Shown in pieces: positions 2,059 through 14,338 of a DNA stretch of 64,000 nucleotides. The notes under the pieces were generated by a model. That model was not told the origin of the DNA. It saw only the letters and a list, made by a program, of their open reading frames with translations, and searched no databases. The position numbers and the translations under genes are program-made. Source of the stretch: Escherichia coli. GTDB taxonomy: Bacteria; Pseudomonadota; Gammaproteobacteria; Enterobacterales; Enterobacteriaceae. Within the stretch, counting starts at the first letter, position 1; each line of letters opens with the position of its first letter. The stretch lies in assembly GCF_003334255.1 (NCBI RefSeq), contig NZ_QOWU01000005.1; one strand, given 5' to 3'.

Positions 2059-3495
2059 ATGGCGCAGTCGAAACTCTATCCAGTTGTGATGGCAGGTGGC
2101 TCCGGTAGCCGCTTATGGCCGCTTTCCCGCGTACTTTACCCCAAGCAGTTTTTATGCCTGAAAGGCGATCTCACCATGCTGCAAACCACCATCTGCCGCC
2201 TGAAAGGCGTAGAGTGCGAAAGCCCGGTGGTGATTTGCAATGAGCAGCACCGCTTTATTGTCGCGGAACAGCTGCGCCAACTGAACAAACTCACCGAGAA
2301 CATTATTCTCGAACCGGCAGGGCGTAACACTGCACCAGCCATTGCGCTGGCGGCGCTGGCGGCAACACGTCATAGTCCGGAGAGCGACCCGTTAATGCTG
2401 GTGCTGGCGGCGGATCATGTGATTGCCGATGAAGACGCGTTCCGTGCCGCCGTGCGTAATGCCATACCGTATGCCGAAGCGGGCAAGCTGGTGACCTTTG
2501 GCATTGTGCCGGATCTACCTGAAATCGGTTATGGCTATATTCGTCGCGGTGAAGTGTCTGCGGGTGAGCAGGATACGGTGGCCTTTGAAGTGGCGCAGTT
2601 TGTCGAAAAACCGAATCTGGAAACCGCTCAGGCCTATGTGGCAAGTGGCGAATATTACTGGAACAGCGGCATGTTCCTGTTCCGCGCCGGACGCTATCTC
2701 GAAGAACTGAAAAAATATCGCCCGGATATTCTCGATGCCTGTGAAAAAGCGATGAGCGCCGTCGATCCGGATCTCGATTTTATTCGCGTGGATGAAGAAG
2801 TGTTTCTCGCCTGCCCGGAAGAGTCGGTGGATTACGCGGTCATGGAACGTACGGCAGATGCTGTTGTGGTGCCGATGGATGCGGGCTGGAGCGATGTCGG
2901 CTCCTGGTCCTCATTATGGGAAATTAGCGCCCACACCGCCGAGGGCAACGTTTGCCACGGCGATGTGATTAATCACAAAACCGAAAACAGCTATGTGTAT
3001 GCCGAATCTGGCCTGGTCACCACCGTCGGGGTGAAAGATTTGGTGGTAGTGCAGACCAAAGATGCGGTGCTGATTGCCGACCGTAACGCGGTGCAGGATG
3101 TGAAAAAAGTGGTCGAGCAGATCAAAGCCGATGGTCGCCATGAGCATCGGGTGCATCGCGAAGTGTATCGTCCGTGGGGCAAATATGACTCTATCGACGC
3201 GGGCGACCGCTACCAGGTGAAACGCATCACCGTGAAACCGGGCGAGGGCTTGTCGGTACAGATGCACCATCACCGCGCGGAACACTGGGTAGTGGTAGCG
3301 GGAACGGCAAAAGTCACCATTGACGGTGATATCAAACTGCTTGGTGAAAACGAGTCCATTTATATTCCGCTGGGGGCGACGCACTGCCTGGAAAACCCGG
3401 GGAAAATTCCGCTCGATTTAATTGAAGTGCGCTCCGGCTCTTATCTCGAAGAGGATGATGTGGTGCGCTTCGCGGATCGCTACGGACGGGTGTAA
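2059..3495 (+). CDS. cpsB: mannose-1-phosphate guanylyltransferase
   Basis: 478-aa ORF; N-terminal nucleotidyltransferase motif [16 protein letters not shown] and C-terminal cupin-like domain. Confidence 0.9.
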
Positions 3496-3496
3496 A

Positions 3497-3700
<204 letters not shown>

Positions 3701-3775
3701 GCGGTGTAAATAATGACAAAAACAAAATTGGCCGTTTCGGTCAGGGCCAACTATTGCCTGAAAAAGGGTAACGAC

Positions 3776-5146
3776 ATGAAAAAATTAACCTGCTTTAAAG
3801 CCTATGATATTCGCGGGAAATTAGGCGAAGAACTGAATGAAGATATTGCCTGGCGCATTGGTCGCGCCTATGGCGAATTTCTCAAACCGAAAACCATTGT
3901 GTTAGGCGGTGATGTCCGTCTCACCAGCGAAACCTTAAAACTGGCGCTGGCAAAAGGTTTACAGGATGCGGGCGTTGACGTGCTGGATATCGGTATGTCC
4001 GGCACCGAAGAGATCTATTTCGCCACGTTCCATCTCGGCGTGGATGGCGGCATCGAAGTTACCGCCAGCCATAACCCGATGGATTATAACGGCATGAAAC
4101 TGGTGCGCGAAGGGGCTCGCCCGATCAGCGGTGATACCGGACTGCGCGATGTCCAGCGCCTGGCTGAAGCCAACGACTTTCCTCCCGTCGATGAAACCAA
4201 ACGCGGTCGCTATCAGCAAATCAACCTGCGTGACGCTTACGTTGATCACCTGTTCGGTTATATCAATGTCAAAAACCTCACGCCGCTCAAGCTGGTGATT
4301 AACTCCGGGAATGGCGCAGCGGGTCCGGTGGTGGACGCCATCGAAGCCCGCTTTAAAGCCCTCGGCGCACCCGTGGAATTAATCAAAGTGCACAACACAC
4401 CGGACGGCAATTTCCCCAACGGTATTCCTAACCCGCTGCTGCCGGAATGCCGCGACGACACCCGCAATGCGGTCATCAAACACGGCGCGGATATGGGCAT
4501 TGCCTTTGACGGTGATTTTGATCGCTGTTTCCTGTTTGACGAAAAAGGGCAGTTTATCGAGGGCTACTACATTGTCGGCCTGTTGGCAGAAGCATTCCTC
4601 GAAAAAAATCCCGGCGCGAAGATCATCCACGATCCTCGTCTCTCCTGGAATACCGTTGATGTGGTGACTGCCGCAGGTGGCACCCCGGTAATGTCGAAAA
4701 CCGGACACGCCTTTATTAAAGAACGTATGCGCAAGGAAGACGCCATCTACGGTGGCGAAATGAGCGCCCACCATTACTTCCGTGATTTCGCTTACTGCGA
4801 CAGCGGCATGATCCCATGGCTGCTGGTCGCCGAACTGGTGTGCCTGAAAGGAAAAACGCTGGGCGAACTGGTGCGCGACCGGATGGCGGCGTTTCCGGCA
4901 AGCGGTGAGATCAACAGCAAACTGGCGCAACCCGTTGAGGCGATTAACCGCGTGGAACAGCACTTTAGCCGTGAGGCGCTGGCGGTGGATCGCACCGATG
5001 GCATCAGCATGACCTTTGCCGACTGGCGCTTTAATCTGCGCTCCTCCAACACCGAACCGGTGGTGCGGTTGAATGTGGAATCACGCGGTGATGTGCCGCT
5101 GATGGAAGCGCGAACGCGAACTCTGCTGACGTTGCTGAACGAGTAA
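3776..5146 (+). CDS. cpsG: phosphomannomutase
   Basis: ORF 3713..5146; likely start at the ATG at 3776 ([14 protein letters not shown]…); phosphohexomutase active-site region TASHNP present. Confidence 0.9.
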
Positions 5147-6596: not shown

Positions 6597-8075
6597 ATGA
6601 GCTTACGTGAAAAAACCATCAGCGGCGCGAAGTGGTCGGCGATTGCTACGGTGATCATCATCGGCCTCGGGCTGGTGCAGATGACCGTGCTGGCGCGGAT
6701 TATCGACAACCACCAGTTCGGTTTGCTTACCGTGTCGCTGGTGATCATCGCGCTGGCAGATACGCTTTCTGACTTCGGTATCGCTAACTCGATTATTCAG
6801 CGAAAAGAAATCAGTCACCTTGAACTCACCACGTTGTACTGGCTGAACGTCGGGCTGGGGATCGTGGTGTGCGTGGCGGTGTTTTTGTTGAGTGATCTCA
6901 TCGGCGACGTGCTGAATAACCCGGACCTGGCACCGTTGATTAAAACATTGTCGCTGGCGTTTGTGGTAATCCCCCACGGGCAACAGTTCCGCGCGTTGAT
7001 GCAGAAGGAGCTGGAGTTCAACAAAATCGGCATGATCGAAACCAGCGCGGTACTGGCGGGCTTCACTTTTACGGTGGTTAGCGCCCATTTCTGGCCGCTG
7101 GCGATGACCGCGATCCTCGGTTATCTGGTCAATAGTGCGGTGAGAACGCTGCTGTTTGGCTACTTTGGACGCAAAATTTATCGCCCCGGTCTGCATTTCT
7201 CGCTGGCGTCGGTGGCACCGAACTTACGCTTTGGTGCCTGGCTGACGGCGGACAGCATCATCAACTATCTCAACACCAACCTTTCAACGCTGGTGCTGGC
7301 GCGTATTCTCGGCGCGGGCGTGGCAGGGGGATACAACCTGGCGTACAACGTGGCCGTTGTGCCACCGATGAAGCTGAACCCGATCATCACCCGTGTGTTG
7401 TTTCCGGCGTTTGCCAAAATTCAGGACGACACCGAAAAGCTGCGCGTTAACTTCTACAAGCTGCTGTCGGTGGTGGGGATTATCAATTTTCCGGCGCTGC
7501 TGGGGCTGATGGTGGTGTCGAATAACTTTGTACCGCTGGTCTTTGGCGAAAAGTGGAACAGCATAATTCCGGTGCTGCAATTGCTGTGTATTGTGGGGCT
7601 ACTGCGCTCAGTGGGTAACCCGATTGGCTCGCTGCTGATGGCGAAAGCGCGGGTCGATATCAGCTTTAAATTCAACGTATTCAAAACCTTTCTGTTTATT
7701 CCGGCGATTGTTATTGGTGGGCAGATGGCGGGTGCAATCGGCGTCACGCTTGGTTTCCTGCTGGTGCAGATTATCAACACCATTCTGAGTTATTTCGTGA
7801 TGATTAAACCGGTGCTCGGTTCCAGTTATCGCCAGTACATCCTGAGTTTATGGCTGCCGTTTTATCTCTCGCTGCCGACGCTGGTGGTTAGTTATGCGCT
7901 GGGCATTGTGCTGAAAGGGCAACTGGTGCTGGGGATGCTGCTGGCGGTGCAAATAGCCACAGGCGTGCTGGCGTTTGTGGTGATGATTGTGTTGTCGCGC
8001 CATCCGCTGGTGGTGGAAGTGAAGCGTCAGTTTTGTCGCAGCGAAAAAATGAAAATGCTTTTGCGGGCCGGGTGA
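6597..8075 (+). CDS. wzxC: colanic acid repeat-unit flippase (Wzx family)
   Basis: 492-aa polytopic membrane ORF; conserved position after wcaJ. Confidence 0.85.
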   Translation: MSLREKTISGAKWSAIATVIIIGLGLVQMTVLARIIDNHQFGLLTVSLVIIALADTLSDFGIANSIIQRKEISHLELTTLYWLNVGLGIVVCVAVFLLSDLIGDVLNNPDLAPLIKTLSLAFVVIPHGQQFRALMQKELEFNKIGMIETSAVLAGFTFTVVSAHFWPLAMTAILGYLVNSAVRTLLFGYFGRKIYRPGLHFSLASVAPNLRFGAWLTADSIINYLNTNLSTLVLARILGAGVAGGYNLAYNVAVVPPMKLNPIITRVLFPAFAKIQDDTEKLRVNFYKLLSVVGIINFPALLGLMVVSNNFVPLVFGEKWNSIIPVLQLLCIVGLLRSVGNPIGSLLMAKARVDISFKFNVFKTFLFIPAIVIGGQMAGAIGVTLGFLLVQIINTILSYFVMIKPVLGSSYRQYILSLWLPFYLSLPTLVVSYALGIVLKGQLVLGMLLAVQIATGVLAFVVMIVLSRHPLVVEVKRQFCRSEKMKMLLRAG

Positions 8076-8098
8076 ATGGTTGTTTTCGGTTCCGGCAA

Positions 8099-8375
8099 TA
8101 GTTGCCGGATGCGGCGTGAACGCCTTATCCGGCCTACGGCTCTGTGCTCGGGTCTTGTAGGTCTGATAAGACGCGTCAGCGTCGCATCAGGCACTGAATG
8201 CCGGATGCTGAATAAACGCCTTATCCGGCCTACGGTTCTGTGCTCGGGACTTGTAGGCCTGATAAGACGCGCCAGCGTCGCATCAGGCACTGAATGCCGG
8301 ATGCGGCGTGAACGCCTTATCAGTCCTACGGTTCTGTGCTCGGACCTTGTAGGCCTGATAAGACGCGCCAGGCAA
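8099..8375. repeat. REP/BIME array, three tandem units of about 95 bp
   Basis: Three near-identical tandem units containing GCCGGATGCGGCGTGAACGCCTTATCCGGCCTACGG and GTAGGCCTGATAAGACGCG; ORFs 8027..8419 and 8076..8438 are translations of these repeats. Confidence 0.8.
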
Positions 8376-8434
8376 AAAGCGGCAACGAACACAACAAACA
8401 CAGCCTCACCTGACATCAAATTTATGAGGAAAAA

Positions 8435-9715
8435 ATGAAATTACTGATTCTGGGCAACCACACTTGCGGCAATCGCGGCGACAGCGCCATCTTGCGCGGC
8501 TTACTTGATGCCATCAACATCCTCAATCCACACGCCGAAGTGGACGTAATGAGCCGCTATCCGGTCAGTTCTTCCTGGCTGCTCAACCGTCCGGTAATGG
8601 GCGATCCGCTGTTCCTGCAAATGAAACAACACAACAGCGCGGCGGGCGTTGTCGGGCGCGTTAAAAAAGTCCTCCGTCGCCGCTATCAGCACCAGGTATT
8701 GCTCTCGCGCGTCACCGACACTGGCAAGCTGCGTAATATCGCCATCGCCCAGGGATTCACCGACTTCGTGCGCTTGCTGTCAGGCTACGACGCCATTATT
8801 CAGGTCGGCGGATCGTTTTTTGTCGATCTCTATGGCGTGCCACAGTTTGAACATGCGCTTTGCACATTTATGGCGAAAAAGCCGCTGTTTATGATTGGTC
8901 ACAGCGTCGGTCCATTCCAGAATGAGCAATTTAACCAACTGGCGAACTACGTTTTTGGTCACTGCGACGCGCTGATCCTGCGCGAATCGGTCAGCCTTGA
9001 TTTGATGAAACGCAGCAATATCACTACCGCAAAAGTCGAACATGGCGTCGATACCGCGTGGCTGGTCGATCACCACACCGAAGATTTCACCGCCAGCTAT
9101 GCCGTTCAACACTGGCTGGACGTTGCCGCACAACAGAAAACGGTGGCCATTACCCTGCGCGAACTGGCACCGTTCGACAAACGTCTCGGCACCACTCAAC
9201 AAGCGTATGAAAAAGCCTTTGCCGGGGTGGTCAATCGCATTCTCGACGAAGGCTATCAGGTTATTGCGCTCTCCACCTGTACGGGTATCGACAGCTATAA
9301 CAAAGACGACCGCATGGTGGCGCTCAACCTGCGCCAGCACATCAGTGATCCTGCCCGTTATCACGTAGTGATGGATGAACTTAACGATCTGGAAATGGGC
9401 AAAATTCTCGGTGCCTGTGAACTCACCGTCGGTACGCGCCTGCACTCTGCCATTATCTCGATGAATTTTGCCACTCCGGCAATTGCCATCAACTACGAAC
9501 ATAAATCCGCCGGGATTATGCAACAGTTGGGACTGCCAGAGATGGCAATTGATATCCGTCATTTATTAGACGGCAGCCTGCAAGCGATGGTTGCGGATAC
9601 CTTAGGCCAGCTTCCGGCGCTGAATGCGCGACTTAGTGAAGCCGTCAGTCGTGAGCGTCAGACAGGAATGCAGATGGTGCAGTCTGTGCTTGAGCGCATC
9701 GGGGAGGTGAAATGA
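8435..9715 (+). CDS. wcaK: colanic acid biosynthesis protein WcaK (putative pyruvyl transferase)
   Basis: 426-aa ORF, MKLLILGNHTCGNRGDSAILRGL…, conserved position. Confidence 0.8.
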   Translation: MKLLILGNHTCGNRGDSAILRGLLDAINILNPHAEVDVMSRYPVSSSWLLNRPVMGDPLFLQMKQHNSAAGVVGRVKKVLRRRYQHQVLLSRVTDTGKLRNIAIAQGFTDFVRLLSGYDAIIQVGGSFFVDLYGVPQFEHALCTFMAKKPLFMIGHSVGPFQNEQFNQLANYVFGHCDALILRESVSLDLMKRSNITTAKVEHGVDTAWLVDHHTEDFTASYAVQHWLDVAAQQKTVAITLRELAPFDKRLGTTQQAYEKAFAGVVNRILDEGYQVIALSTCTGIDSYNKDDRMVALNLRQHISDPARYHVVMDELNDLEMGKILGACELTVGTRLHSAIISMNFATPAIAINYEHKSAGIMQQLGLPEMAIDIRHLLDGSLQAMVADTLGQLPALNARLSEAVSRERQTGMQMVQSVLERIGEVK

Positions 9716-13663: not shown

Positions 13664-13702
13664 CAGTGCTCTGGTAGCTGTAAAGCCAGGGGCGGTAGCG
13701 TG
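13664..13702 (+). promoter_or_regulatory. JUMPstart element with ops (GGCGGTAGCGTG), RfaH-dependent antitermination site
   Basis: CAGTGCTCTGGTAGCTGTAAAGCCAGGGGCGGTAGCGTG read directly; ops at 13691..13702; located between galF and the O-antigen genes. Confidence 0.8.
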
Positions 13703-13852: not shown

Positions 13853-14338
13853 AATTGAACTTAAAAAATTGATGGAACATATTTCTATTATCCTCGATTA
13901 TAGACAAGCTAGGAAAGTGAAACATAAATTGTTTGATATTCTACTGTTGACTATTTGCGCACTTATTTCTGGTGCAGAAGGCTGAAAAGATATAGATGGT
14001 TTTTGGGAAACGCATCTTGATTTTTTTAACAATATCGTGATTTTGAAAATGGTATTCCTATTCACTATACCATTGCCAGAGTTGTATCCTGTATCAGTTC
14101 TACAAAATTTCATGAGTGTTTTATTAACTGGATGCGTGATTGTCATTCTTAAGATGATAAAGACGTCATTGCAATTGATGGAAAAACGCTCCGGCATTCT
14201 TATGACAAGAGTCGTCGCAGGAGAGCGATTCATGTCATTGGTGCATTCTCAACTATGCACAGTCTGGTCATCGGACAGATCAAGACGGATGAACAGAAAC
14301 TACCTAGCGTCAGTCCTTGCGGGGAGCGGGCTTTCGTA
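13853..14338 (+). pseudogene. H-repeat-associated (ISAs1-family) transposase remnant, frameshifted and internally deleted
   Basis: Translations give [43 protein letters not shown]-stop, later frames …[41 protein letters not shown] joined directly to the C-terminal [16 protein letters not shown]; these match the H-repeat protein family as recalled. Confidence 0.6.

Follow-up and report, generated by a model that had tools for sequence, protein, structure and literature searches.

Two arrays of tandemly repeated palindromes located between genes of the wca (colanic acid) operon in the window, the whole 64,000-nt stretch of Escherichia coli DNA that was analysed, are BIME-2 elements, composed of Y and inverted Z2 REP palindromes (PUs) in tandem. 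The array between wzxC and wcaK (array A) corresponds to the K-12 element REP144, which occupies the same junction, and a sister array (array B) lies between cpsB and cpsG. Array A is an element of a known kind at a known place, since REPs at these junctions and their variability have already been published. Its number of Y/Z2 units ranges from none to six among E. coli genomes, and it probably acts (a probability of roughly 0.6 is assigned to this reading) as a modest, dispensable RNA-hairpin modulator of the colanic acid transcript.

Structure and classification of the wca arrays

The 1.5 kb around array A are 100% identical to E. coli strain 214-4 (NZ_CP025840.1), the annotation of which gives the gene order gmd-fcl-gmm-wcaI-cpsB-cpsG-wcaJ-wzxC-wcaK-wcaL-wcaM-galF, with all genes on the + strand. 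Array A lies inside the 359-nt spacer that extends from the end of wzxC (6597-8075, + strand; stop codon 8073-8075) to the start codon of wcaK at 8435 (8435-9715, + strand). Tandem Repeats Finder (TRF) delimits it at 8103-8371, with a period of 96, 2.8 copies, 90% matches and a score of 454, so that the array of the preliminary description stands while its extent (8099-8375) and unit length (about 95 bp) are slightly adjusted. A 34-nt Y-PU pattern allowing up to three mismatches matched at arrays A and B only and was found in none of 100 shuffles, and a looser Y and Z2 scan of the whole 64-kb window recovered ten PUs, all of them in array A or B, and none outside the two arrays. The RNA of the wzxC-wcaK spacer is predicted to fold at -183.5 kcal/mol (z = -9.9 vs shuffles). 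Because TRF, the shuffled PU pattern, the PU scan and the folding z-score agree, array A can be regarded as real and beyond chance. The original placing of a tandem BIME array between wzxC and wcaK is thus borne out by TRF, PU scans and annotation, and the gene context given for both arrays agrees with the open reading frames and the annotation.

On the sense strand, array A reads as a leader followed by Y, 19 nt, inverted Z2 and ACTGAAT, the series being repeated and ending in a 63-nt tail, and a GTAG/CTAC foot is conserved on every PU. The 28-nt leader (8076..8103, + strand), which is retained in the empty-site strain FY26 as ...TCCGGCAAT, forms a small inverted repeat (CCGGCAA-TAG-TTGCCGG) with the 5′ end of the first Y PU. 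This first Y (8104..8137, + strand; GCCGGATGCGGCGTGAACGCCTTATCCGGCCTAC, with the CTAC foot at its 3′ end) is intact, with no mismatches to the Y consensus and a hairpin dG of -21.3 on the sense RNA, and is joined by a 19-nt tail-to-tail linker (GGCTCTGTGCTCGGGTCTT; 8138..8156, + strand) to the first inverted Z2 (8157..8192, - strand), which begins with its GTAG foot, is intact with two mismatches to the Z2 consensus (dG -17.8) and aligns with the Z2 hairpin of the Rfam naRNA4 model. Beyond the 7-nt head-to-head linker ACTGAAT (8193..8199, + strand), the second Y (8200..8233, + strand; GCTGAATAAACGCC) is decayed, its inner stem being gone (four mismatches, dG -11.4), and the second inverted Z2 (8253..8288, - strand) is intact (no mismatches, dG -20.5) and contributes to the gathering-level naRNA4 match at 8256-8326 on the minus strand. 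In the last copy, the third Y (8296..8329, + strand; TTATCAGTCCTAC) is decayed through a broken outer stem (two mismatches, dG -9.5), and the terminal Z2 (8349..8371, - strand; dG -5.8) has lost its distal arm to an 11-nt deletion (CGTCGCATCAG) and forms no hairpin, whereas other strains have a full-length terminal Z2. Three of the six PUs are therefore decayed or truncated in the source strain, and the intact ones (Y1, Z2-1 and Z2-2) have hairpins of -17.8 to -21.3 kcal/mol. The units had been called nearly identical, a wording that does not survive the comparison, given a unit-to-unit identity of 87-92%, two damaged Y PUs and a shortened terminal Z2. The A/C-rich spacer tail (8372..8434, + strand; 63 nt, C 15 vs G 9) contains the wcaK Shine-Dalgarno sequence (GAGGAAAAAATG) and is mostly kept in the empty-site strain. 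A CCTCA-N16-TGAGG motif is also seen at 8402-8427 of the window, in which the upstream CCTC could pair with the GAGG of the wcaK Shine-Dalgarno sequence; the stem is weak (5 bp with a 16-nt loop), and the motif is present in all examined E. coli alleles of the array-A spacer type, including the empty site, and absent in BL21.

Array B (3497..3685, + strand) occupies the 280-nt spacer between cpsB (2059-3495, + strand) and cpsG (from 3776, + strand) and was detected by TRF with a period of 88, 2.1 copies and 98% matches. It consists of a Z2 fragment followed by two copies of Y, 11 nt, inverted Z2 and 7 nt, the PU scan giving a partial Z2 at 3497-3509, Y at 3517-3550, Z2 at 3562-3597, Y at 3605-3638 and Z2 at 3650-3685. 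All four full PUs are intact (dG -19 to -20.5), and across both arrays intact PUs have values of -18 to -21 on either strand. The linkers differ from those of array A, both tail-to-tail (11 vs 19 nt) and head-to-head (GCTGGCT vs ACTGAAT). TRF and the PU scan thus confirm the sister array between cpsB and cpsG. It had been taken to hold the unit of array A twice, at 3497..3700; the family and PU types are indeed shared, but with an 88-bp period and other linkers the two arrays belong to the same family and do not share the same unit. In the Y PUs of array B, the outer stem has changed in a compensatory manner (GTCGGA...TCCGAC vs GCCGGA...TCCGGC), so that the hairpin is preserved. This double change is common to both Y PUs (3517-3550 and 3605-3638), which fits a single event followed by duplication. 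Apart from the BIME, an algC RNA motif (Rfam RF02929; 78.2 bits vs a gathering score of 33.8) is found at 3722..3771 on the + strand, directly upstream of cpsG, between array B and the cpsG start codon.

BIME-2 elements consist of Y and Z2 in tandem copies with short linkers and a strain-variable copy number (PMC3333891; PMC1187871). The PUs of arrays A and B match the Y or Z2 consensus with zero to four mismatches and align to the Y and Z2 hairpins of naRNA4; they alternate strictly, with + strand Y ending in CCTAC and - strand Z2 beginning with GTAGG; they are arranged in tandem with short linkers (2.8 x 96 bp in array A, its linkers measuring 7 and 19 nt, and 2.1 x 88 bp in array B, where they measure 7 and 11 nt); the arrays are extragenic, between the annotated coding sequences wzxC/wcaK and cpsB/cpsG; and the copy number varies from zero to six units at wzxC-wcaK. 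BIME-1 elements comprise one Y and one Z1 with a long L linker that often contains an IHF site (PMC3333891), and the IHF consensus WATCAANNNNTTR has no match in array A or B. The combination of Y and Z2, linkers of at most 19 nt and the missing WATCAANNNNTTR match identifies the arrays as BIME-2, and the IHF binding proposed for them earlier does not apply, because IHF sites belong to the BIME-1 L linker (PMC3333891). Assignment to BIME-1 (RIB/RIP) was accordingly rejected, the arrays being without Z1, the long L linker and the IHF consensus, and tandem rather than single copy. In K-12, REP144 is located between wzxC and wcaK at coordinates 2118467-2118652 (published supplementary table); repeat features are not listed in the examined stretch of the K-12 RefSeq record. 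The identification matters little beyond correct annotation, in which Y/Z2 arrays should not be credited with IHF binding.

Several other features were observed in the window. An ISAs1-family transposase pseudogene (approximately 13854-14296; L001 15355-15797) lies between galF and an O-antigen wzx annotated as belonging to the O167 family, and a JUMPstart element (RF01707, 60 bits) is found just upstream of it at 13664-13702. Rfam matches to the His operon leader (36634-36757, - strand, 131.6 bits) and to the STnc240 sRNA (39496-39570, + strand, 68.2 bits) are expected for this chromosomal region.

Variation at the wzxC-wcaK and cpsB-cpsG junctions

Since dispersed REP copies saturate a megablast search with the whole region, the wzxC-wcaK site was queried with 400 nt of each flank joined, and 59 informative rows were taken in even steps through the 4654 matching genomes. 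The spacer lengths fell into seven classes, of 70-72 nt (5 rows), 145-179 nt (12 rows), 275-284 nt (24 rows), 359-373 nt (7 rows), 466-469 nt (5 rows), 563-565 nt (2 rows) and 660-663 nt (4 rows), forming a ladder of approximately 71, 179, 275, 371, 467, 564 and 661 nt. One representative of each rung contained, in ascending order, zero (FY26), one (O157:H7 NE122), two (K-12), three (JX21CE35, as in the source strain), four, five and six Y/Z2 units. All four K-12-type rows had 275 nt and all four O157:H7-type rows 179 nt (one of these being named O157:H7), with O157:H7 strain TR01 at 275 nt; copy number therefore seems to be kept within a clone and varies from one lineage to another. The allele of the source strain is rare, at most 9 of 5463 records having at least 99% identity over the 1.5-kb region. 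At the cpsB-cpsG site, where the listed lengths are 1 nt above the true spacer length, an 88-bp ladder was likewise seen, with listed spacers of 102-105 nt in 13 rows, 129 nt in one, 193 nt in 37, 281 nt in four and 369 nt in three. A comparison of copy number across strains had been proposed as a check on the arrays, and the two ladders contradict the notion that copy number might be identical everywhere.

Length polymorphism is a documented trait of the BIME-2 family (PMC1187871; PMC3333891), and for these two junctions REP-containing indels have been reported, at wcaK-wzxC and cpsG-cpsB, together with a sequence-similarity junction in the wcaK-wzxC spacer that is a possible recombination point (Iguchi et al., 2011; PMC3158064). 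Empty-site alleles were present in 5 of the 59 sampled genomes, and the flanking genes are intact both in these and in alleles carrying other repeats. The existence of empty-site strains indicates that array A is dispensable.

B-type E. coli (including BL21 and the type strain ATCC 11775) are without PUs at the wzxC-wcaK junction and have an unrelated spacer of 159-161 nt (L003:401-561 in BL21), which contains the palindrome CCCTCACCCTAACCCTCTCCCC...GGGGCGAGGGG and was found at full length in 275 of 5426 genomes. The core of this spacer matches a second place in some genomes, and it may be a box-C-like repeat. Species-representative genomes were scanned with a DNA pattern anchored on the WcaK N-terminus, which yielded 120 loci, and in 75 of these a wzxC homologue is located directly upstream of wcaK. 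The median wzxC-wcaK spacer of the 75 loci is 33 nt (at most 45 nt in 49), the usual range in other genera being 13-45 nt, and PUs of the E. coli Y/Z2 type are confined to the E. coli representative, which marks the BIME-2 as a lineage-specific insertion at an ancestrally tight junction. The remaining 26 spacers are expanded; those of 12 species from several genera have a G/C-rich palindrome (CCCTCTCCCC...GGGGAGAGGG with GGGTGAGGG), a type that can also be given as CCCTCTCC/GGGTGAGGG, and three from Citrobacter have a REP pair of their own. Unrelated palindromic repeats occupy the junction in 16 of the 75 species, and the BL21-type E. coli junction is filled by the same G/C-rich palindrome type as in the 12 species. 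Salmonella enterica arizonae (L078) has a 62-nt spacer with seemingly one degenerate Y-like PU. Across Enterobacteriaceae the wzxC-wcaK junction is a recurrent landing place for palindromic repeats, which could reflect either a gap that is simply permissive or weak selection in favour of RNA structure at this boundary.

The cpsB-cpsG spacer has a different history. Its median length in 21 species is 109 nt, and most of these spacers contain one genus-specific REP just after cpsB, followed by the conserved algC-motif hairpin. As a REP is already present there across genera, array B of E. coli is an expansion at an anciently occupied site. By eye, the algC-type hairpin (GGCC...GGTCAGGGCCAACTGTTGCCTGAAAAAGGG) can be recognised in most spacers of these 21 other enterobacterial species. 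The cpsB-cpsG spacer of Superficieibacter sp. 1612_C1 (L080) is 350 nt long and has one forward REP and then approximately four tandem REPs of the GTAGGCCCGG... type with linkers of about 50 nt, an independent expansion at the junction of array B.

Possible functions of the arrays

Both arrays lie inside the transcription unit, where they give rise to long untranslated gaps, and form very stable hairpins in the sense RNA. Array A is proposed to be co-transcribed with the operon, in which case its hairpins would block 3′-to-5′ exonucleases on the mRNA and so stabilise the upstream wza...wzxC segment, while the hairpins and the 359-nt untranslated gap would together cause some loss of read-through, partly Rho-dependent, before wcaK-wcaL-wcaM. 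The strength of such modulation would scale with the number of intact hairpins. The 96-bp direct repeats may change in copy number through slippage or unequal recombination, with RAYT/TnpA-REP activity as a further possibility. Attenuation is expected to be weak because the wca operon is transcribed in the JUMPstart-RfaH antitermination mode (PMC9976346), and the net fitness effect is expected to be small because strains that are array-less or have unrelated repeats keep intact flanking genes.

Support for this reading comes chiefly from REP325. Deletion of REP325 raised expression of the downstream gene approximately 8-10-fold and lowered the upstream mRNA, and its termination activity was partly bicyclomycin-sensitive and hence Rho-dependent, for the full array only and not for fragments of 2-4 hairpins; genome-wide, tandem gene pairs separated by REPs are biased to upstream expression (bioRxiv 10.64898/2026.03.23.713779). 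By analogy, array B would, like array A, shield the wca mRNA upstream of it from 3′ exonucleases and lower read-through to some extent. The preliminary description had suggested mRNA stabiliser, attenuator and gyrase-site roles; these are textbook roles of the BIME class, the first two having been shown experimentally for REP325. For the wca arrays several observations weigh in the other direction. Counts from LB-grown K-12 show no upstream bias (baseMean 36 for wzxC vs 91 for wcaK), the operon being near-silent under these conditions. An in-vitro Rho-binding peak by REP144 is on the antisense strand and overlaps it by 1 nt only, so that sense-strand Rho loading is unsupported. Half of the array A PUs are damaged in the source strain, which counts against a functional reading, and the empty-site (5/59) and different-repeat (275/5426) alleles argue against a required role. 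Taken together, the RfaH mode, the PU polarity, the Rho peak, the LB counts and the empty or different-repeat alleles indicate that any function would be modulatory and dispensable. The series of zero to six units in otherwise similar operons offers convenient natural alleles for the recent proposal that REP arrays serve as tunable terminator/stabiliser "dials", here in an operon under RfaH control.

A serious rival, possible though not the favoured explanation, is that array A is a near-neutral or selfish repeat seeded by REP/RAYT activity in one of the operon's few noncoding gaps and expanding or contracting by slippage, with no meaningful effect on wca expression. The range of copy number from zero to six, empty sites with intact flanking genes, the decay of three of six PUs in the source strain and the usual junction length of 13-45 nt in other genera are all as this rival would have them, as are the generality of length polymorphism in the BIME-2 class (PMC1187871; PMC3333891) and the missing upstream expression bias of K-12 in LB. 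However, intact hairpins of -18 to -21 kcal/mol are not easily rendered inert in an mRNA, the measured effects of REP325 are large, and the units of array B have kept 98% identity together with a compensatory change in the stem; the unrelated palindromes at the junction in 16/75 species also speak against neutrality, although they are compatible with a permissive site. Alternatively, the array might serve as a high-affinity DNA gyrase site or topological insulator that relieves positive supercoiling of the ~24-kb wca operon. BIME-2 elements are described as in-vivo gyrase cleavage targets (Espeli and Boccard, 1997, as cited in PMC3333891 and PMC4550694), and array A has the required Y/Z2 composition, but strains with an empty site exist and the PU decay in the source strain would weaken such a site, which leaves this role rather unlikely as the main explanation. 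Gyrase binding as such is plausible at array A and would be compatible with an RNA-level role. A joint reading that extends hairpin modulation further, to a wzxC/wcaK boundary selected for strong RNA structure with the ladder of zero to six units acting as a heritable rheostat, is very speculative and improbable. Were it true, the junction would have been filled convergently by whichever palindrome family is active in a lineage, namely Y/Z2 BIME-2 in most E. coli, REP pairs of its own in Citrobacter, and the CCCTCTCCCC/GGGTGAGGG palindrome both in B-type E. coli and in 12 further species. The filling would then determine in what proportion the early and flippase genes stand to the late genes wcaK, wcaL and wcaM, and with it the degree of colanic acid pyruvylation or completion.

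Two further candidates arise from database and reading-frame searches. Rfam naRNA4 (RF02564) matches above gathering at 8256-8326 (67.7 bits) and 3565-3635 (75.1 bits), both on the minus strand, from which it might be supposed that the arrays encode naRNA4-like nucleoid-associated sRNAs that bind HU and condense the chromosome. The model represents REP325, with its six Y-l-Z2 units (PMC4550694), and aligns its two hairpins to the PUs of the wca arrays, which direct comparison with K-12 REP325 shows to be the same PU pair; being simply Y and Z2 hairpins, it matches any BIME-2. In a sensitive rescan, each head-to-head PU pair gave matches on both strands, with 45-68 bits for the minus and 36-44 bits for the plus strand, so that the transcribed strand remains under the gathering score of 59.5. 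On that strand REP325 reads <Y-13-Z2>-17 and the wca arrays read Y>-19/11-<Z2-7, and it is because of this opposite PU polarity that the above-threshold matches are antisense to the operon. No sigma-70-like promoter, including internal wcaK and antisense promoters, was found at either array on either strand, and both strands of 7900-8600 and 3300-3950 were free of intrinsic terminators (GC-rich hairpins with a U-run behind them). The antisense matches, the polarity and the missing promoter indicate that the naRNA4 matches reflect BIME-2 DNA homology and not an sRNA gene. Moreover, a re-examination in 2026 found no measurable effect of REP325/naRNA4 deletion or overexpression on nucleoid compaction (bioRxiv 10.64898/2026.03.23.713779), and an sRNA role of this type seems highly improbable; Rfam naRNA4 matches in any BIME-2 should not be taken as sRNA genes. 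Even less credence can be given to translational coupling of wzxC to wcaK by a spacer ORF (8076-8438, 120 aa, + strand). This ORF starts at TGAATG, which includes the wzxC stop codon, and ends at ATGA, which includes the wcaK start codon, its frame is open across the spacer in the source and empty-site strains, and 96 bp is a multiple of 3. However, K-12, O157:H7 and JX21CE35 have GTT in place of its ATG, 1-12 stops interrupt the frame in the six other BIME-bearing representatives, several of which are also out of phase, and the ORF is not annotated by PGAP. With neither start nor frame conserved across strains, the ORF was rejected as a coupling peptide and is regarded as translated REP sequence.

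Comparison with known systems

Within the BIME-2 family (nomenclature of Gilson, Bachellier and Hofnung), the closest counterpart of array A is K-12 REP144 itself, which shares the junction, the alternating Y and Z2, the GTAG feet, the short linkers, the tandem arrangement, the extragenic position and the variability between strains. K-12 has the two-unit allele, whereas the source strain has a three-unit allele in which two Y PUs are decayed and the terminal Z2 is truncated. The likeness to BIME-1 elements is limited to the presence of a Y PU and to the extragenic, palindromic nature of the repeats, as BIME-1 has Z1 and an IHF-binding L linker and occurs as a single copy, features that arrays A and B are without.

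The variation described by Iguchi et al. (PMC3158064) concerns the same two junctions, with variable REP numbers, in O-antigen cluster flanks, but was seen in a handful of O157 strains, whereas the ladder of zero to six units was sampled from approximately 4650 genomes. For function, the comparison is with REP325 (naRNA1-6) of the yjdM-yjdN junction, which likewise consists of tandem Y and Z2 units between co-oriented genes of one operon and for which, alone among BIME-2 elements, a dual terminator and stabiliser role is directly supported. In REP325 the six units are joined by linkers of 13 and 17 nt and read <Y Z2> in the sense direction, whereas in the wca arrays the linkers measure 7 and 19 (or 7 and 11) nt, the sense strand reads Y> <Z2, the opposite polarity, and the operon is under RfaH antitermination.
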